DNA from: a virus
Lineage: Duplodnaviria; Heunggongvirae; Uroviricota; Caudoviricetes
Reading direction: 5' to 3' (one strand)
Virus record (IMG/VR): IMGVR_UViG_2529292972_000014
Length of the DNA stretch: 19,436 nucleotides
How positions within the stretch are numbered: position 1 is the stretch's first letter; the number at the start of each line of letters is the position of its first letter. The notes beneath the pieces were generated by a model that was given only the letters and a program-made list of their open reading frames with translations, did not search any database and had not been told where the DNA came from. The translations under genes and the position numbers were made by a program. Of this stretch, positions 1,621-19,436 are shown piece by piece.

Positions 1621-2358
1621 TCATTCACTCTCTTTCAAACCAGTTTTAACTGTTTGTGGTTTTGGGTAAGGCTGGACTTTGAATAGCTTTGTGTTGAGGC
1701 GTTTTCTGGCCCTCTTGTTCAGAAACCGGATGTAACGAAACTGTCGGAACTTATGAACACTGGCTCTGTCAATATTAGCCCTCAGATGTTCACCTCGTTG
1801 TCCGCCTCGTTTAATGGCATTCCTGCAAATCTCGTGATACCACTCGCCATCAAGTTCATAGAATATTGATTCATGGCTGCCTACATAATCAAAATTGCTT
1901 GCCTGATACACGACACCAAGACAGCCACAACGCTCATCTGCAAACGACTGAACCCACTGTACCTGCGGATAAAGCTGCCTGATTAGCTTGAGCGCGTAAC
2001 TGATTGCCCTTGATTCGGAGTTTCTCGGCATACAGTCATGCAGCCATAGCCGGTTAAGCTCCATATATTCTCGGTTCTGCGTACCCGTTACGACGCGTGC
2101 ACCACTGTTTGGGTTAAGGGCGTAACCCCATTGCATTACGCCAACAAGTTCCCGTTCTGAAAATATGCCCAGATGAAGGTAGGAGTTATTTACGAAACGG
2201 TGGCTGTAATGTTTATTGACGATGACCAGTCTGGCCAGCCAGCAACTTATTGTCTCAACCCGCAACTCACGGGAGCCATAACCAACGATATTGTCGTTAT
2301 AGCGAATAAGTTCAGGCGTGCTGATGATTCGGGATGTGACTTGCTTTCTGTTCCCCAC
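1621..2358 (-). CDS. mom: Mom-family DNA modification protein (adenine modification, anti-restriction)
   Basis: 245-aa ORF immediately downstream of, and overlapping by 47 nt, a Com-like zinc-finger gene; located after the invertase at the prophage terminus exactly as in Mu. GTG start at 2358 with an aaggaa RBS about 9 nt upstream. Identity rests on context and size, not on a remembered sequence alignment. Confidence 0.75.
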
Positions 2359-3129: not shown

Positions 3130-3375
3130 TTACATCATAGTACCGTCAGTTCCGGGCTGAACCGGCTCTGGTTGCTCTACGGGTTGAGGATCATTTTCCG
3201 TGCTGTTTTCAGCCGGAGAACGGCCAACCATTCGGGCCAGCACTTCATCAACATATGCGTCGATTTGTGCCTCAAAATCCTTGCGAACCTGCGCCTTCAG
3301 CACGCGGTTCACTTCTTCAGAATAAAGTGCCTGTTTGACAAGCTCTTCAGTAACCGTGCCTTTAATCTCTGGCAT
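3130..3375 (-). CDS. Hypothetical 81-aa acidic, Pro/Glu-rich C-terminus protein
   Basis: Strong aaggag RBS 7 nt upstream of the ATG at 3375. Followed by the hairpin at 3101-3120. No family recognised. Confidence 0.5.
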   Translation of the reverse strand: MPEIKGTVTEELVKQALYSEEVNRVLKAQVRKDFEAQIDAYVDEVLARMVGRSPAENSTENDPQPVEQPEPVQPGTDGTMM

Positions 3376-3410: not shown

Positions 3411-3593
3411 TCAGAGCGGGGTCGGGTCGTTTGGGGATGACGGTGCCTGTGCTGTTTTACTGAGTTTTTCAGCTGCCGCATCATCAATTTTACGGCGAAT
3501 ATAATTTCTGATGACCTTATAACCACCGCTCACCAGATATAACGCACTGACCACAGCGCAGAAATAAAGCAGCATTGTATGAACGAATGTCAT
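3411..3593 (-). CDS. Hypothetical 60-aa small membrane protein (single N-terminal TM helix, charged C-terminus)
   Basis: Hydrophobic stretch MLLYFCAVVSALYLVSGGY followed by a basic/acidic tail. Plausible RBS (aaggtaagg) upstream of the ATG at 3593. No family recognised. Confidence 0.4.
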   Translation of the reverse strand: MTFVHTMLLYFCAVVSALYLVSGGYKVIRNYIRRKIDDAAAEKLSKTAQAPSSPNDPTPL

Positions 3594-3705: not shown

Positions 3706-3742
3706 TCCCGCCAGCCATATCATGACCGGCGGGATTTTTTTA
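3706..3742 (+). terminator. Intrinsic-terminator-like hairpin on the plus strand (cccgcc...ggcggg followed by T7)
   Basis: GC-rich stem cccgcc(3707-3712)/ggcggg(3728-3733) followed by attttttta. Overlaps the stop codon of the minus-strand 679-aa gene. Confidence 0.4.
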
Positions 3743-5779
3743 TTCTGTTACCGCTTTTTTCACTTCCACCACAATGCTGTCAATCAGCACCGGGTAAGTT
3801 GCATTTTTTGTGATATCCGTTACGCGGAGTTTGTCCACCGGGAAAGTTCCTACTGGTGACTGCGTCAGGGTAAACGCGGCACCATCCTGACCATCAATAA
3901 CCGGAATAACCTGAAGGCTGTTATTTCCTGCAAAACGGAAGGCCAGCGTATGCCATTCATTATCAAATGCACCAAAGGTTCCCAGTTTCTGGTTATTTGT
4001 TGCCACTTTTGCATTGTGGTACATCACATTCAGGTCTTTTGCGTCTGTCTGGATGTAGAACGATGCCAGCAGATTATTCCCTGCATCCCCTGTCAGGGTG
4101 ACACCCTGCGGCAGAGAGGAAACCGGCCAGTAAAGCCCCATGACATACTGGTTTGCCACCAGGTCGCCAGGTACTTTAAAACGACAACTGATTAAACCAC
4201 CATTTTTCAGCAGTTCAGCACCAGTACCGGCATCATGATCCAGATACCAAGATGATTTACCTGTTTCCTTGGTCAGTTTCATTGCCTTACCACCTGTGCC
4301 TCCTGCATCACTGATAATTTCAGCTTTACCGCCAGCCGGCTCCCAGCCCTGGGCTTTCAGATTTCCTTCTGACTCACTGACACGATAAGACAGCAGTGTT
4401 GTGGTTACTGCTTCAGTTTCTGAAGGTGACGGCACTGGTGCTTCAGTTTCAGAAGATGGAACATCGGCTTTTACTGTGGTTCGCCCCGCATGAGTCAGAA
4501 CTGCCGTGGCCAGACGGTCGGAAATAATCCCACGACGTGCCCATGAACTGAAATGGCTGGCCCGGTCCGCAGATGTCCAGGTGGCGGCACTGTTACGCCA
4601 CGTTGAGCCGTAATAACCAATGGATTCAATATCCGGGTCTTCTGCCGGATTGTTGGTGGGTACATTCGCGTCATTTTCATCTGTCATTAATGGAACGAAA
4701 TGAATGTTTTTATCTGTTTTGTTTTTGTAGCCGCCATAGATTGCCTGGTATGCCGGTTCATTTTTCTGTTTCCAGAAATACGTGGTATCGCCACAAATCC
4801 ACGGAACGCCAGCAGCACTGCCACCGGTACACTGTTCCGCCTGTTCAGCCAGGTCTGCGCGGAATTTTTCCACCATCGCCAGAAACAGCGCGGAATGCTC
4901 CGTCGGCTTCGCATCAATATCAAACTCGCCCTGCATCCACACCACAGCAAGCAGGCGGTTTTTCGGGTTCTTCGCCAGTGCCGCTTTTGTCCGGCTGATT
5001 AAGTCCTTATACAGCGGCTTATCCACACCCCAGCGGGCTGAGTCCTCTGAAGCACCCGTGCTGTCACTGTACGTGCCGTCAGCACCCGCCGTGAATGCAG
5101 AACCACCACGGCAGCAGGGAACCAGCAGAATCCCCGCATCTGCCGGAATAAACGGCAGCAGTTTTTTGGCAATGTGAAGCCCCTGACCCACGGTGCCATA
5201 TTGCCCTTTAGCCACATCCGCTTTCGGGTGATTTTTTCCACTCATATCCTGCACATCATGCAGACAGTGGTCGGCCAGAATGATGTCGTTATACTGACAG
5301 GCTTTACCTCCCGGCGTGACTGTACTGCGACGGGCTAACTGCATAATACGCGGTTCGGGGCGGTCATATGTCTCCGGCAGTGGCAGACCTTCACCGTAAG
5401 CCATACCGTTTGACTGACCAGCAAGAACCACCACGTAATACCAGGAAGGGGAGCTGGAAGCAGTTTCATTTCCTGACGGACGGGTATGTGTTTCAGCATT
5501 ATCCCAGTCTGACGGTTCAGCAGTACCGGCAACATCAGCACTTAACGGAATGACCGCACCAATACCCGCTCCGGTAATTTCCACACTCGGATCACCGGAT
5601 ACTGGCCTTACCCACAGGCAATCCCGTGTATTAAAACTGATGAGACAGTCAGCAAATGTCATTCCTCCTTTTGTTTCGGCCGGAGGAAAGGGAGCCTCAA
5701 GAAATGCCGCTGTACCACCGGAAACTTTAACAGTAAAGTTTCCGGGCATTGATGATAGTTGAACCCATTTGGACGTCAT
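3740..5779 (-). CDS. SGNH/SASA-family carbohydrate esterase (sialate O-acetylesterase NanS-p-like) with C-terminal lectin/LamG-like beta-rich domain; phage accessory (moron) gene
   Basis: 679-aa ORF. Motifs YYVVVLAGQSNGMAYGEG (GQSN catalytic-Ser block), VVWMQGEFD (WxQGE block) and a later His-containing block are consistent with sialate O-acetylesterase-type SGNH hydrolases. C-terminal roughly 250 aa is beta-rich and lectin-like. Linker contains a duplicated SETEAPVPSPSETEA segment (direct repeat gcttcagtttc[t/a]gaag about 4410-4456). Confidence 0.65.
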   Translation of the reverse strand: MTSKWVQLSSMPGNFTVKVSGGTAAFLEAPFPPAETKGGMTFADCLISFNTRDCLWVRPVSGDPSVEITGAGIGAVIPLSADVAGTAEPSDWDNAETHTRPSGNETASSSPSWYYVVVLAGQSNGMAYGEGLPLPETYDRPEPRIMQLARRSTVTPGGKACQYNDIILADHCLHDVQDMSGKNHPKADVAKGQYGTVGQGLHIAKKLLPFIPADAGILLVPCCRGGSAFTAGADGTYSDSTGASEDSARWGVDKPLYKDLISRTKAALAKNPKNRLLAVVWMQGEFDIDAKPTEHSALFLAMVEKFRADLAEQAEQCTGGSAAGVPWICGDTTYFWKQKNEPAYQAIYGGYKNKTDKNIHFVPLMTDENDANVPTNNPAEDPDIESIGYYGSTWRNSAATWTSADRASHFSSWARRGIISDRLATAVLTHAGRTTVKADVPSSETEAPVPSPSETEAVTTTLLSYRVSESEGNLKAQGWEPAGGKAEIISDAGGTGGKAMKLTKETGKSSWYLDHDAGTGAELLKNGGLISCRFKVPGDLVANQYVMGLYWPVSSLPQGVTLTGDAGNNLLASFYIQTDAKDLNVMYHNAKVATNNQKLGTFGAFDNEWHTLAFRFAGNNSLQVIPVIDGQDGAAFTLTQSPVGTFPVDKLRVTDITKNATYPVLIDSIVVEVKKAVTE

Positions 5780-5878
5780 AATAATCAGCCTGTTCCTGAA
5801 TAAACTGAATTATCATATCCACAGACCGATAAACGCCATTTTGCGTTAATTCAGTAAAGGCCCAACAAAGGGAGCGTC

Positions 5879-6439
5879 TTATTTTTCCGAAACGCTCGCA
5901 GGATAATAACGATAAAGGGTTGAAAGGCCGATATCAAAAATAAGTGCCACCTGTCTTCGACTGACACCCCCGGCCAGTAAACGCCCGACCTGCTCGTATT
6001 GTTCCTGCGTGAGACGACGGGGTCTGCCGCCGGTTCGTCCCCTTTCACGGGCAGCTGCAAGACCAGCCCGTGTCCGTTCGACAATTAATTCACGCTCCAT
6101 TTCTGCCAGCGCACCCATTATGTGAAAAAAGAAGCGCCCCATGGGGGTTGACGTATCAATGTTGTCAGTAAGACTACGAAAATTTATCCCCTGTTGCTGT
6201 AATTCATCTGTCAGCGCAACAAGGTGGCGCATACTGCGCCCCAGCCTGTCCAGTTTCCAGACCATCAGTGTGTCACCGGGTTTTAGTTTCTTCAGTGCCC
6301 GCTTCAGTCCCGGCCGCTGTGTCGTTTTACCACTCATTTTATCTTCAAAAATCTGCTCACATCCTGCACATTCCAGCGCATTTCTTTGTAAACCTGTGTT
6401 CTGGTCATTTGTTGATACGCGTATATAGCCAATCAGCAT
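5879..6439 (-). CDS. gin: Serine DNA invertase, Gin/Pin/Cin/Hin family
   Basis: MLIGYIRVSTNDQNTGLQRNAL...WKLDRLGRSMRHL...GRFFFHIMGALAEMERELIVERT... is the canonical resolvase/invertase catalytic domain with a C-terminal HTH. Adjacent to a gix-like crossover site and the invertible fibre segment. Symbol gin chosen from Mu-like context; pin is equally possible. Confidence 0.93.
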   Translation of the reverse strand: MLIGYIRVSTNDQNTGLQRNALECAGCEQIFEDKMSGKTTQRPGLKRALKKLKPGDTLMVWKLDRLGRSMRHLVALTDELQQQGINFRSLTDNIDTSTPMGRFFFHIMGALAEMERELIVERTRAGLAAARERGRTGGRPRRLTQEQYEQVGRLLAGGVSRRQVALIFDIGLSTLYRYYPASVSEK

Positions 6440-6493
6440 GTATTTACCTTCCTTAAAAAGAGGTGGAAAGGCCTTTTAAAGCAGATATACGGC

Positions 6494-6519
6494 ATCCCTG
6501 AAACCTCGGTTTACGGGAT
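6494..6519. other. Invertase crossover site (gix/pix-like), left
   Basis: atccctgaaacc tc ggtttacgggat: two 12-bp half-sites in inverted orientation around a 2-bp core, resembling the gix half-site TTCCTGTAAACC as recalled. Confidence 0.7.
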
Positions 6520-6864
6520 ACTGTAAACAGGGCCGCGAATGCCCTGCCATCGAACGGAGCGGCTGTTGCAGCGAATAAACTCGCCACTCCAAGAAATATT
6601 AATGGTGTCCCATTTGACGGAACGCAGGATATAAATATTACATCGGGGATGACGCAGTCTGTGGCTGACTCACGTTATGTTCAAAGCATTCGAAGAGGTT
6701 CAAGGTCAACGATTGGAATGCAATATAATATTTTTGAGGTTCCTGACGGATGCGTACTTACAGGGCTTGATGTCGCTGGTGATGGTAATGCAACGGTAAC
6801 CGCATATTATCGACCTGTTCAGTTTCTGATAGATGGTTCGTGGAAAACAGCTTCCAGCGCATAA
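6508..6864 (+). CDS. Alternative (currently silent) tail-fibre C-terminal segment; no own start codon, expressed only after inversion fuses it to the constant fibre N-terminus
   Basis: Frame open from the crossover site; translates GLRDTVNRAANALPSNGGAVAANKLATPRNINGVPFDGTQDINITSGM...TAYYRPVQFLIDGSWKTASSA, paralogous to residues 178-303 of the expressed fibre. Confidence 0.6.
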   Translation, partial: GLRDTVNRAANALPSNGAAVAANKLATPRNINGVPFDGTQDINITSGMTQSVADSRYVQSIRRGSRSTIGMQYNIFEVPDGCVLTGLDVAGDGNATVTAYYRPVQFLIDGSWKTASSA

Positions 6865-6943
6865 AAGTGCAGTAGTTCAAAAAACAGATTATCTGAATAA
6901 ATATATGATGATTTTGTCTTTTCAACAAAAACAAGGTGAAATA

Positions 6944-7465
6944 ATGGAGCTTATTAACGTAAAACGATATTACCCGGAACACAAACCCTATGGTGAGGAT
7001 GTTCAGTATTTCCAGAGTGAGGACGGAAGGGATTTTTATGAATCTATCCCGCTTTTCACAAAGAAATACAAACTCTGTATTTCGCCTGTAACGGGTATTA
7101 TCTGCTCTGTTGCTGAAGATGTCTCTGCTTTATATCCGGCAGGTTTTACTGTTGTTGAAGTGGACGAACTGCCGGAAGGTGTGAATATTGACGGTAACTG
7201 GCAGTTTTCTGATGGCCTGATATCAAAGGTGCCGGTAAACTGGAAGACGGTTGCTGAAAAGCGCCGCTCATCGCTGCTCCAGGAAGCCAACGAAACTGTG
7301 GATGACTGGAAAACGGAATTAAAACTGGACATGATTAGCGATGAAAATAAATTACAGCTGACGCGCTGGATGGCGTATATCCGACAGCTTAAAGAAATGC
7401 ACTTTAATGATATTGCCAGTGAGGGGCATTACCAGGCGATTCCCTGGCCGGAAAAACCGGAATAA
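6944..7465 (+). CDS. Tail fibre assembly protein (Tfa/U family), belonging to the silent fibre arm
   Basis: aaggtg RBS 7 nt upstream of the ATG at 6944. C-terminus ...QAIPWPEKPE matches the conserved Tfa ending (WPxKPE). The ORF track's longer 6833 start is unlikely. Confidence 0.8.
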   Translation: MELINVKRYYPEHKPYGEDVQYFQSEDGRDFYESIPLFTKKYKLCISPVTGIICSVAEDVSALYPAGFTVVEVDELPEGVNIDGNWQFSDGLISKVPVNWKTVAEKRRSSLLQEANETVDDWKTELKLDMISDENKLQLTRWMAYIRQLKEMHFNDIASEGHYQAIPWPEKPE

Positions 7466-7499
7466 TTCAGAGGGTGCATTCAGCACCCTTTTCTGTGGT

Positions 7500-8411
7500 T
7501 TACACTGAACTTACCGTTCTCCAGGCATTATTAATATAAATCTGAACCGGGCGATAATAGACCCCACCGATATTGTCCGCAGACCGGGAGCCGGTTTCCT
7601 GCACGTTAATTCCGGAAAGCATACAACCGGAAGGTGCGCTGTAATTCCATGACATTTCATTGCCTCCGGGTGAATGATAGCTCTGTGCTCCAAGCTGAAC
7701 ATTCTGTACATACCGGCCATCTGCGGTTGACTGCGTCATTCCTGACGTGATGTTGATATCCAGCGTTCCGTCAAAAGGAACACCATTAATATTTCTTGGG
7801 GTGGCGAGTCTGTTTGCTGCCACGGCGGTTCCACCCGATGGCAGGGCATCAGCAGCCTTATTTACCGTTTCCCGTAAACCGACGTTATCGATAAAAGCGC
7901 CTTTATCCGGAATGTCTGCGCCGTTCTGCTCCCTGCGCAGGTAACGGTTATCACCTTCGCTTTTGCTGTAAACATCCAGATTATTACGGGCGGTTCCCGC
8001 ATTCTCCAGGTCGGCAAGGTTCTGATCCTTCGCCAGAGCATTAACGTCACCGGGACCAAGACTGTTTTTTGTGGCAAGCGCCCCAAGACCAAGATAACCA
8101 CGGGCAAGACGCTGGGCTTCCGCACCGGCATCAGCAATTTCTTTCAGGTTGTTTTTCCGGGAAAAGGCATTCGCAGCGATAATGGCTTTAATGGACAGCG
8201 TAAGCTGGTTTAACTGCGCCTTATCCGGCTGAATACTGGCTTCAGCCAGAATATTCAGCAGTTCGGCCTGGAGAATATTCAGCCAGTCCTGACCAATCCA
8301 GCTGATACCTTTTTGTCCGTCACCTTCGGTAAACCAGGTGGTGGTATTACTCTGCGCCGGTGCCAGCGCAGGCATATTCGCCACGCCGGAATTATTATCA
8401 ACATGGAACAT
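7500..8411 (-). CDS. Tail fibre protein (constant N-terminal part residues 1-177 plus currently expressed variable tip 178-303)
   Basis: ATG at 8411 overlaps the upstream stop by 1 nt (taatg). C-terminus ...GGVYYRPVQIYINNAWRTVSSV resembles myovirus fibre C-termini. The right crossover site lies at codons 177-178. Confidence 0.8.
   Translation of the reverse strand: MFHVDNNSGVANMPALAPAQSNTTTWFTEGDGQKGISWIGQDWLNILQAELLNILAEASIQPDKAQLNQLTLSIKAIIAANAFSRKNNLKEIADAGAEAQRLARGYLGLGALATKNSLGPGDVNALAKDQNLADLENAGTARNNLDVYSKSEGDNRYLRREQNGADIPDKGAFIDNVGLRETVNKAADALPSGGTAVAANRLATPRNINGVPFDGTLDINITSGMTQSTADGRYVQNVQLGAQSYHSPGGNEMSWNYSAPSGCMLSGINVQETGSRSADNIGGVYYRPVQIYINNAWRTVSSV
7869..7894. other. Invertase crossover site (gix/pix-like), right, inside the tail-fibre gene
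   Basis: ttcccgtaaacc ga cgttatcgataa: left half matches the gix half-site 11/12, right half matches the TTATCnnAAACC consensus 9/12. Core ga is the reverse complement of core tc in the left site, as required for inversion. Confidence 0.6.
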
Positions 8412-8971
8412 TAAATATTCTCCTCTTCGTGACTGTTTGCATATACGTAAATAAACGTCTGCCATGCAGGCTTATAACGGTTCAGAATACATTCCAGCGC
8501 ACCGCCTTCATAAATACGCAGCGGCGTGAGAATATCATCCAGCACATTCATATTCCGGTAGCCGGTTTCACTGTTAATCGTGACAATACTGACCCACTGT
8601 GAATCCGGTGATGGCTGAATATCTATTTCATAACCAAACTCTGCCGCAAACCGGATATAAAATTCACGGTTAAGAGAGGGTTTCATCCGGTATTTATTCC
8701 CGGCATAACGCTGACGCTCCTGAATGGTTGCGCCGGTCATATCACATTCCGGTAACCCCAGATAACGCTCCCAGTCTTCCAGCAGCAGACGGGATGAATC
8801 AGGAAAACGTTCTGCCAGCATCTGGTTACCGGTCCAGGAAACACGCTCCGTGGAATGACTGAGGCCCAGGCACAAAGCCGCAAGAACGGATGACGGCCGC
8901 TTATCCCATGCCAGCCCGTCAGGCAGCAACTGCAACAGGGCGCGCTGATGCGGGGTCAGGGTTACAGCCAT
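8411..8971 (-). CDS. Mu gp48-like baseplate/tail protein (DUF2313, YmfQ-like)
   Basis: 186 aa; position between the baseplate J-like gene and the tail fibre gene. Confidence 0.65.
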   Translation of the reverse strand: MAVTLTPHQRALLQLLPDGLAWDKRPSSVLAALCLGLSHSTERVSWTGNQMLAERFPDSSRLLLEDWERYLGLPECDMTGATIQERQRYAGNKYRMKPSLNREFYIRFAAEFGYEIDIQPSPDSQWVSIVTINSETGYRNMNVLDDILTPLRIYEGGALECILNRYKPAWQTFIYVYANSHEEENI

Positions 8972-10047
8972 GTGATTTCCCCCACGGTCAGCAACTCTGT
9001 ATCTCCGGCCATCACGGACTTCAGCGGGCTGCGAACTTCAAAATCCTCCAGTCCTTTCACCCCTGCAACAGCCCGCCAGAATGATGAAGGCAATACAAGT
9101 CCACCCGGCCGCGATTCGTTATAAAGCAGGTCTGTTAATGCCTGTTTTACGGCAGCCTGATTTTCCGGCGTTTTGGGTACAATCCTGATCTCAAACGCCA
9201 CCGGCTTATTGGTCAGCTTAAACACGCTGATTGTCGGCCCAAGTGGCTGACCAACGGGCTGGCCCGTCGCCGGATCATCATGACTGCGGATATAATCCGC
9301 CACCCGCTTCACATCACCTTCTCCGGGGAAAATGTCAGGGTTATTATCCTGAACAAAAGTCACACCAACACTACCCGCCTCAGGCCATTCAGGCTTACAC
9401 CATGCCCGCGTCACGCCCGGTACTTCCCGTGCCCAGCGTTCAAAATCATACTGTGTTCCCCCTGATGGCGGGTTCTGTACCCGGAATACCAGCCTGGACA
9501 GCAACTCCGGCACCGTTTCCACATCCGCACCACCGGTGAGTCCCGTGCCGGTGACCGTGGCTGTCTGGTTGATGCCCGCCTGTGGCGTGATAAAGGACAG
9601 GCGGGTTCCGGTCGGGGTATTTCCAGCGCGCCCCGCACTTTCCGCCTCCACATTAACATTCAGTGTTCCGGCTTTTCCGGTCGCAGAGCCGGTGATGCGG
9701 TACACAACCCCATCGCTTCGCTGAAGGAGTACGCCTTCCGTGATCCCTGCATCCGTGGTCAGCATCAGTTGTACCGGTCCGTCAGCGCGGGAAGCCGGTT
9801 TACGGATGACACCCCAGAATGCGCAGTGTTTCAGGAGTTCGGCTTCATCAGCTTCTGTCGGAATTATCTGCCGGGAGATCCAGGCCAGATGTTCATGCTC
9901 CTGTGCTGACAGACCCGCCAGTGCATACGCAATGGCATTCAGGGTGGTTTCATTCACGCCCGGCTGCGAACCGGGCAGGCGCTGGCTGATATCCTGTTGT
10001 GTCTGTGTGATCAGTTGCGCCAGTGGTAAGGGCTGATAAGGCATCAT
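8962..10047 (-). CDS. Baseplate J-like protein (Mu gp47 / P2 gpJ / T4 gp6 family)
   Basis: 361 aa; conserved synteny after the gp25-like gene; start overlaps the upstream stop. Confidence 0.75.
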   Translation of the reverse strand: MMPYQPLPLAQLITQTQQDISQRLPGSQPGVNETTLNAIAYALAGLSAQEHEHLAWISRQIIPTEADEAELLKHCAFWGVIRKPASRADGPVQLMLTTDAGITEGVLLQRSDGVVYRITGSATGKAGTLNVNVEAESAGRAGNTPTGTRLSFITPQAGINQTATVTGTGLTGGADVETVPELLSRLVFRVQNPPSGGTQYDFERWAREVPGVTRAWCKPEWPEAGSVGVTFVQDNNPDIFPGEGDVKRVADYIRSHDDPATGQPVGQPLGPTISVFKLTNKPVAFEIRIVPKTPENQAAVKQALTDLLYNESRPGGLVLPSSFWRAVAGVKGLEDFEVRSPLKSVMAGDTELLTVGEITWL

Positions 10048-19310: not shown

Positions 19311-19436
19311 GCACGGGCCTGTTCCGCTTTGTTACCGGTCTTTTTCCGGGGAGCATCCTGTCCGGCTTCGGCTTCGGCTTCGGCTTCGGCTTCGGCTTCG
19401 GCTTCGGCTTCGGCTTCGGCTTCGGCTTCGGCTTCG
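19307..19436 (-). CDS. Partial CDS (3' end only; gene continues beyond the window): head-module protein with C-terminal (Glu-Ala)n repeat
   Basis: Frame open across the whole repeat; translates ...(EA)n EAGQDAPRKKTGNKAEQARA-stop, with the stop overlapping the next gene's ATG. Confidence 0.5.
   Translation of the reverse strand, partial: EAEAEAEAEAEAEAEAEAEAEAEAGQDAPRKKTGNKAEQARA
19364..19436. repeat. Hexanucleotide tandem repeat (GGCTTC/GCTTCG)n, at least 12 copies, truncated by the window edge
   Basis: Read directly: ggcttcggcttcggcttc... from 19364 to the end of the window. Confidence 0.95.

Follow-up and report, generated by a model that had tools for sequence, protein, structure and literature searches.

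A probably functional Gin-type inversion switch with two tail-fibre tips and a single chaperone gene in an Sp18-type Mu-like prophage

We analysed a 19,436-nucleotide (nt) stretch of viral DNA (IMG/VR record IMGVR_UViG_2529292972_000014, Caudoviricetes; the whole stretch is hereafter called the window), the minus strand of which carries the right-hand part of a Mu-like prophage with genes for sheath, tube, tape measure, and baseplate. Its tail-fibre locus comprises a fibre gene, a DNA invertase gene, and a segment bounded by two crossover sites that holds the 3' end of the fibre gene (tip A), a silent alternative 3' end (tip B), and one gene for a tail-fibre assembly chaperone (Tfa). We are confident that this locus is a functional inversion switch of the Gin family, probably one that depends on Fis and a recombinational enhancer, in a prophage of the same type as Sp18 of Escherichia coli strain Sakai. 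The features of the locus are listed below.

7500-8411, minus strand: tail-fibre gene, 303 amino acids (aa), with its ATG at 8411
7883-8411, minus strand: constant N-terminal part of the fibre (the equivalent of Sc), codons 1-176/177
7500-7880, minus strand: variable tip A, 126 aa, currently expressed, with no chaperone gene downstream
6508-6864, plus strand: silent tip B, 118 aa, ending in a stop codon at 6862-6864, with neither a promoter nor its own start codon
6944-7465, plus strand: tail-fibre assembly chaperone Tfa, 173 aa (Pfam Caudo_TAP, 1.9e-18; PHROG 136)
7469-7491, plus strand: hairpin between the convergent tfa and tip A, with a stem of 9 base pairs (bp) including 5 G-C pairs, and a T-run
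5879-6439, minus strand: DNA invertase homologous to Gin, 186 aa, with transcription leading away from the invertible segment
6355-6418, minus strand: putative recombinational enhancer in the 5' end of the invertase gene, two Fis-type 15-mers spanning 64 bp
6494-6519: invertase-proximal crossover site, gixR-like, ATCCCTGAAACC-TC-GGTTTACGGGAT, core TC at 6506-6507
7869-7894: fibre-side crossover site, gixL-like, TTCCCGTAAACC-GA-CGTTATCGATAA, core GA at 7881-7882, within codon 177 of the fibre gene
6508-7880: invertible segment, 1373 bp between the cores

A preliminary description of this DNA, made from the letters alone, had proposed two 26-bp crossover sites, and both lie where it put them, with matching 2-bp cores. 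One core, TC, is the reverse complement of the other, GA, and the sites are therefore in inverted orientation. All four half-sites fit the pattern xTCCC/TTATC..AAAC(C/G). Compared with the sites of Mu, the fibre-side site has 4 mismatches in 26 positions to gixL, and the invertase-side site has 7 in 26 to gixR; the outer half-sites of the two sites in the window are not identical to each other. A scan for the half-site motif AAACCNNGGTTT, allowing up to two mismatches, returned 9 matches where 9.3 were expected, which is not significant alone. The case for the two sites rests instead on the geometry, on the adjoining Gin homologue, and on the natural inversions described below. The two arms of the segment form a 182-nt inverted repeat (6502-6683 and 7705-7886) that is 79-81% identical as complements, the longest perfect run being 20 bp, and on the outer side this similarity ends sharply at the core. 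We also considered a multi-site shufflon or a Min-type system, and rejected it because the half-site motif scan gave no convincing third crossover site.

The fibre-side site had been assigned to codons 177-178 of the fibre gene, and we could place its core precisely, at bases 2 and 3 of codon 177 (GTC, Val); the 26-bp site as a whole spans roughly codons 173-181. It encodes FIDNVGLRE, where Mu S has FIQNLGLQE at the boundary of the G segment, and it stands at the codon position homologous to the Mu Sc/Sv boundary. The silent arm (6508-6864) was said to be in the correct frame for fusion, and an in-silico inversion of 6508-7880 indeed gives an uninterrupted fibre of 295 aa. The two tips were further described as nearly identical over about 45 residues and then diverged. 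That pattern holds, but the length was set too low: the first 59 residues are identical at 50 of 59 positions, and they are followed by 59-67 diverged residues. Residues 1-198 of the fibre align with residues 1-191 of Mu S (PDB 5yvq, E = 3e-43; 46% identity by BLASTP), and the last 74 residues align with Mu S 435-503 in the same structure. Tip A is 60% identical to the S' tip of SfMu and 41% identical to the tip of Mu S, while tip B is homologous to Mu S residues 437-504.

The invertase is identical to Mu Gin at 136 of 181 positions (75%), with the catalytic Ser9 in the motif RVSTNDQ. It matches Pfam Resolvase (1.4e-51) and HTH_7, PHROG 125 (DNA invertase), and the Gin crystal structures 3uj3/4m6f (E = 2e-91). 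A basic patch on helix B (Hin K47, K/R48, K/R51), together with Q151, R154, and L155 in helix 1 of the DNA-binding domain, is unique to enhancer-dependent invertases (McLean et al. 2013, PMC3798978). These residues are kept in the window: Hin K47, R48, and K51 correspond to K46, R47, and K50 in GLKRALKKL, and Hin Q151, R154, and L155 to the Q, R, and L of EQVGRLL. The offset of +1 between Hin and the window comes from our own alignment, the positions having been transferred via alignment with Gin.

In the Hin system, the enhancer is ~65 bp long, has a Fis site at each end, and lies ~100 bp from the nearest recombination site (PMC3798978). The preliminary description had suggested a search for a Fis-binding enhancer in the 5' part of the invertase gene, and a putative one is present there at the level of sequence, in the form of two spaced 15-mers and of invariant blocks. 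The Fis-type 15-mers (G-N13-C) are GTATCAACAAATGAC (6404-6418) and GTGCAGGATGTGAGC (6355-6369), with their centres 49 bp apart. The centre of the proximal 15-mer is 95.5 bp from the centre of the core, as in Mu, and this predicted layout fits the published description of the Hin enhancer. The distance from the core centre to the start codon of the invertase, 67.5 bp, is likewise the same in the window and in Mu, despite a diverged spacer sequence. Moreover, the window, Mu gin, SfMu gin, and e14 pin agree throughout nucleotides 22-41 and 70-80 of the invertase gene, even at synonymous positions. Within these blocks, 9 of 9 codons are codon-identical, versus 40 of 122 for conserved residues overall; the implied probability of this excess (~4e-5) overstates the case because Mu and SfMu are closely related.

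The orientation of the segment was surveyed in 5,426 complete E. coli genomes, which were queried with positions 5800-8500 of the window, both as is and inverted in silico; genomes with a match over at least 80% of the query were counted. The locus has the window's orientation in 182 genomes and is inverted in 23. Three complete genomes match the in-silico inverted query of 2701 nt at 100.0%. Strain 07_3636 (NZ_CP074928.1) has two copies, one in appC and one in a gene of the glc operon (L001 and L002), and over 15 kb the differences between them are an inversion of exactly 6508-7880 and one single-nucleotide polymorphism. Strains SMN197SH3 and OkiPb01679 each carry one copy per orientation, at 98.9-100% identity. 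Upon rechecking, the predicted fused open reading frame proved to be in frame and intact in naturally inverted genomes: the 295-aa frame is uninterrupted in all six inverted loci with tip B (among them L001, L006, and L007), and at L012, the seventh inverted locus, the fibre is also intact but has 298 aa and a different tip. Inversion between the two sites, with crossover at the core, thus occurs in nature.

The position of the crossover argues for an enzyme acting at the sites. It is confined to a 13-bp run, TCGGTTTACGGGA, that contains the core and lies at the outer edge of the repeat, whereas identical runs of up to 20 bp are found further in; its occurrence in the outer run rather than in the longer inner ones indicates site-specific rather than homologous recombination. 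We therefore consider it very improbable that the inversions in public genomes arose, independently of the invertase, by RecA-dependent homologous recombination between the 182-nt repeats. The repeat is certainly there, and at one inverted locus (L009, NZ_CP027440.1) the first roughly 55 nt of both arms have been homogenised to the tip A sequence, that is, gene conversion between the arms has taken place. However, the arms share only the limited identity and the short perfect runs given above, the crossover falls within the outer 13-bp run with the core in every inverted genome that matches at 100%, and the cores co-vary (see below), as expected for a staggered 2-bp cut but not for general recombination. 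We also noted that the invertase-side site of L009 contains an additional A in its outer half (AAAACC); the unusual features of this locus are at the equivalents of window positions 6494-6560 and 7829-7869.

That the inverted copies are mere assembly artefacts is hardly credible. Assemblers can mis-orient short invertible segments flanked by repeats, but here exactly the same junction recurs in 23 complete genomes that were obtained independently, by different laboratories and on different platforms, and the NCBI annotation pipeline (PGAP) calls the intact fused frame in most of the inverted genomes. Besides, mixed reads able to confuse an assembler would themselves indicate switching.

We propose that the 186-aa serine invertase would bind the two 26-bp gix-like sites and synapse them with the enhancer in the 5' end of its own gene, after which the DNA would be cut at the 2-bp GA cores and the 1373-bp segment rotated by 180 degrees. 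Because the fibre-side site is within codon 177, the constant N-terminal 176 residues would be joined to either tip A or tip B. In the window's orientation, the fibre would have 303 aa and end in tip A, with no chaperone gene downstream; in the other, it would have 295 aa and end in tip B, and tfa would follow. The locus had been called a frame-preserving switch of the Gin/Pin type, and this assignment draws support from the homology to Gin, the gix-like sites, the homologous codon position, and the presence of both orientations in public genomes. With its matched cores, the window should be competent to switch. We infer the dependence on Fis and the rate of switching in this lysogen, and likewise, by analogy with Mu and P1, that the two tips would give different host ranges.

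Several points weigh against a functional, enhancer-dependent switch. The orientations are strongly skewed (182 versus 23), and public assemblies report only the majority orientation of each culture. The outer half-site of the fibre-side site has a G, not a C, beside the core, as does the functional pix site of e14. The distal 15-mer of the putative enhancer has a G/C-containing centre. Tip A lacks a cognate chaperone in cis, and homologous tips in SfMu and Rac-SA53 have one. Finally, a large share of the polymorphism in orientation could date from infection and owe nothing to flipping in the lysogen.

The last of these points concerns the way in which the prophage is distributed. Near-100% identical copies are found in O157:H7, O111:H8, O103:H2, O121, O26, and O145 strains, and the insertion site differs in almost every carrier genome. 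The site used in the window is shared by none of the 5,426 genomes surveyed, and Sp18 of Sakai is inserted elsewhere, in sorM. From these comparisons, it looks like a Mu-like prophage that is actively transposing and spreading. With separate insertion sites, flipping within a lysogen is not separable from an orientation inherited from the infecting particle. We found no lysogens of opposite orientation at one shared insertion site, the sites all being distinct, so the comparison was made with the double lysogen 07_3636. Should orientation be mostly inherited, the 8:1 excess would make tip A the tip with which the phage infected these E. coli.

The cores themselves vary among otherwise near-identical copies of the prophage (L014-L020). 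Up to position 19415, the prophage part of the window differs from Sakai Sp18, in which ECs_4989 to ECs_4992 are the fibre, Tfa, silent tip fragment, and DNA invertase genes, at six positions; further differences are in the final 21 bases of the window. Of the six, two fall in the cores, 6507 C>T and 7881 G>A, so that both sites are changed together, to TT/AA; the change on the fibre side is synonymous (GTC to GTT). Core alleles were counted by exact 30-mer searches, complemented by six sampled loci, with the following result.

Invertase-side TT next to arm B (window's orientation): 24 genomes, Sakai and 23 others
Fibre-side AA next to arm A (window's orientation): 87 genomes
Fibre-side AA next to arm B (inverted): 2 genomes
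Invertase-side TT next to arm A (inverted): the same 2 genomes

In the inverted state, the AA allele is thus found only together with TT. By subtraction, ~63 genomes, all in the window's orientation, combine a fibre-side AA with no exact match to the TT 30-mer on the invertase side. Incompatible cores were confirmed in 6 of 6 sampled loci: strain 113 and FRIK804 have TC/AA, and a 3-nt TTC spacer is combined with AA in RM10386 (O26), RM8385 (O103), 12E115 (O145:H28), and F8798 (O157:H7). In the Hin system, a single core mismatch blocks ligation in the inverted configuration (PMC4817059), and by this analogy the ~63 incompatible copies are probably locked. None of them is inverted, versus 23 of 142 compatible copies (Fisher p = 2e-4), a difference that is suggestive only since many of the genomes are clonal.

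These copies bear on another explanation, namely that the switch in the window is a relic, intact in its anatomy but without meaningful flipping, and that the fibre is fixed as tip A. We regard this as quite unlikely. It would agree with the 89% of carrier genomes that have the window's orientation, and with the ~63 incompatible copies (all six of those sampled having been confirmed), which share that orientation without exception and suggest that loss of switching is tolerated or favoured. In the window, however, the GA cores match, the invertase is intact, and the enhancer blocks are conserved; the very same allele occurs inverted at 100% identity in three genomes, and both orientations are present within a single genome.

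Returning to the functional switch, a more specific scenario is one that we put forward tentatively and hold to be somewhat doubtful: the switch might be asymmetric and in the course of being shut down, with a chaperone only for tip B, most copies displaying tip A, and about a third of them (roughly 63 of 205) frozen in that state by cores unable to recombine productively, either GA against AA or the TTC spacer. Under this scenario, the AA/AA state of Sakai would be a natural example of the localized conversion described for P1 Cin, and the TTC spacer would have been left behind when a TT and a TC core underwent an aberrant exchange. In the P1 Cin system, Iida and Hiestand-Nauer reportedly observed in 1986 that a core mutation was transferred between sites.

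The asymmetry stems from the chaperone gene, which, like the hairpin beside it, the preliminary description did not mention. Its expectation that inversion swaps only the tip is correct as far as the tip exchange goes, but the single chaperone gene also changes orientation. Tfa matches Mu U (PDB 5yvq_B, 2.3e-15) and is the sole chaperone encoded in the segment; the gene is co-oriented with the silent tip B and inverts together with the tips. Its stop codon is 34 bp from that of tip A. We found the one-chaperone layout in every related allele examined. No sigma-70-like promoter for tfa was detected on the plus strand of 6508-6944, by a scan that does not cover Mu late promoters.

The closest relatives point in more than one direction. 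Homologues of tip A with a Tfa gene behind them are found in SfMu (60% identity) and Rac-SA53 (57% over 92 residues). Among phage homologues of the window's Tfa, the nearest (53%) is that of Rac-SA53, which stands after a tip A-like tip; the similarity is mostly in the N-terminal 100 residues. At L012 (NZ_AP042676.1), a Mu-S-like tip takes the place of tip B in the fibre and the silent tip A is kept, and Tfa is nearly unchanged save for the first roughly 12 codons. Because this locus pairs a nearly identical Tfa with a different tip, the window's Tfa may not be tip-specific. Judging from these alleles, tip cassettes have evidently been exchanged while the one-chaperone layout was kept.

These observations need to be weighed for the possibility that the switch acts mainly as an on/off device for a properly assembled fibre, with only the tip B state putting the chaperone gene into the late transcript. 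The single tfa gene co-oriented with tip B, the narrow gap between the tfa and tip A stops, and the result of the promoter scan (within its stated reach) would all be in keeping with such a device, as would the Tfa genes that follow tip A homologues in SfMu and Rac-SA53. Nevertheless, we give this explanation little weight, though enough to keep it in mind. Tip A is found in most of the independent insertions of a spreading phage, and particles with tip A would be infectious if orientation is inherited; the near-identity of Tfa at L012, beside a different tip, again suggests that the chaperone may serve more than one tip. Many other tfa genes are also present in Shiga-toxin-producing E. coli hosts and could supply a chaperone in trans.

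As a separate observation, the hairpin between tfa and tip A is terminator-like for the plus strand and has a weaker T-run on the minus strand. Because its good T-run is on the plus strand only, read-through into the invertase and esterase genes might differ by orientation; speculatively, late transcription might pass into these genes more easily when tip A is expressed than when tip B is.

Other genes of the prophage in the window that flank the locus are as follows.

8962-10047, minus strand: Baseplate_J
8411-8971, minus strand: homologue of Mu gp48
3740-5779, minus strand: SASA/DUF6645 protein (esterase; SASA, sialate O-acetylesterase domain), 679 aa, directly downstream of the invertase gene
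3411-3593 and 3130-3375, both minus strand: small DUF1378 and DUF826 genes, after the esterase gene
1621-2358, minus strand: Mom; Com and Mom follow the esterase block

The prophage ends near position 1493, and positions 1-1492 are chromosomal flank. The SASA/DUF6645 gene and its small neighbours presumably resemble the NanS-p esterase block of Shiga toxin (Stx) phages. In NCBIfam, the fibre, Tfa, and the esterase had no specific family, and the invertase matched only distant recombinase models.

We noted several peculiarities of the RefSeq annotation at this locus. A 61-aa 'hypothetical protein' at 6453-6638 on the minus strand is a wrong-strand artefact across the invertase-side site, and it carries a 'frameshifted' flag in TTC alleles. 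The silent tip (6649-6864, plus strand) is labelled as a 67-aa 'tail fiber protein'. At two inverted loci (L010 and L011), the intact 295-aa fused fibre is absent from the annotation.

Collectively, these results mean that a Mu-like prophage spreading in Shiga-toxin E. coli of serogroups O157, O26, O103, O111, O121, and O145 can present two fibre tips, which bears on the strains that it can reach and on annotation, the latter because annotations often get the silent tip and the fused fibre wrong. The switch is real but already known in kind: its mechanism is the textbook one of the Mu G segment, and no new principle is involved. What we describe of the crossover sites, reading frame, natural inversions, single-chaperone arrangement, and core variants is useful detail and does not make this a new kind of system. 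What is added is a minimal one-chaperone version, natural copies in both states, and core mutations that should lock the switch, the last of which provide ready-made experimental controls.

Programmed inversions in phage fibre genes have reportedly been catalogued before. An invertible host-specificity region of Sp18 was noted by Asadulghani et al. 2009 (PMC2669165); we found no description of Sp18-type crossover sites, frame, natural inversions, or single-chaperone layout in the searchable literature. The element of Sakai Sp18 is the same as that of the window, differing in its cores (TT/AA versus TC/GA) and in its insertion site. Among more distant systems, Hin/hix of Salmonella (PMC3798978) shares with the window the invertase subclass, 26-bp sites, and a 2-bp core, and its Fis enhancer of ~65 bp has a putative counterpart in the window. 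Unlike the window's element, however, Hin flips a promoter and is encoded within its own segment, whereas the switch described here exchanges the 3' end of a coding region and has its invertase gene outside the segment.

The P segment of e14 in E. coli K-12, inverted by Pin, is closer in layout. Arranged as stfP-tfaP / tfaE-stfE-pinE, it is likewise a small segment with an adjoining invertase gene, and its short fibre (StfP, 209 aa) follows a YmfQ-family baseplate protein, as the window's fibre does. The same enhancer blocks are present in the 5' end of its invertase gene, and one of its sites has CGTT for GGTT beside the core, again as in the window. In contrast to the window, e14 has a chaperone gene in each arm and TT/AA cores, and it is a defective lambdoid element rather than a Mu-like phage.

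The closest comparison is with Mu itself, in which gp47, gp48, and the S fibre, the invertible segment, gin, and then com/mom stand in the same order. The GA core, the spacing between site and gin, and the enhancer blocks are identical to those of the window, the crossover is at the homologous codon of S, and the N-terminus of the fibre, its tip, and the chaperone are homologous to S and U. The differences are in size and content. The G segment is 3056 bp long and the window's segment 1373 bp; S has 504 aa and the window's fibre 303 aa, the window lacking a middle part of roughly 240 residues; Mu and SfMu have a chaperone behind each tip (U and U' in Mu), whereas the window has one; and the window has extra genes between gin and com/mom (the 679-aa esterase, DUF1378, and DUF826) that are absent from Mu. 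On these likenesses and differences, we regard the window's element as an orthologue of the G segment in which the shaft of the fibre has apparently been deleted.

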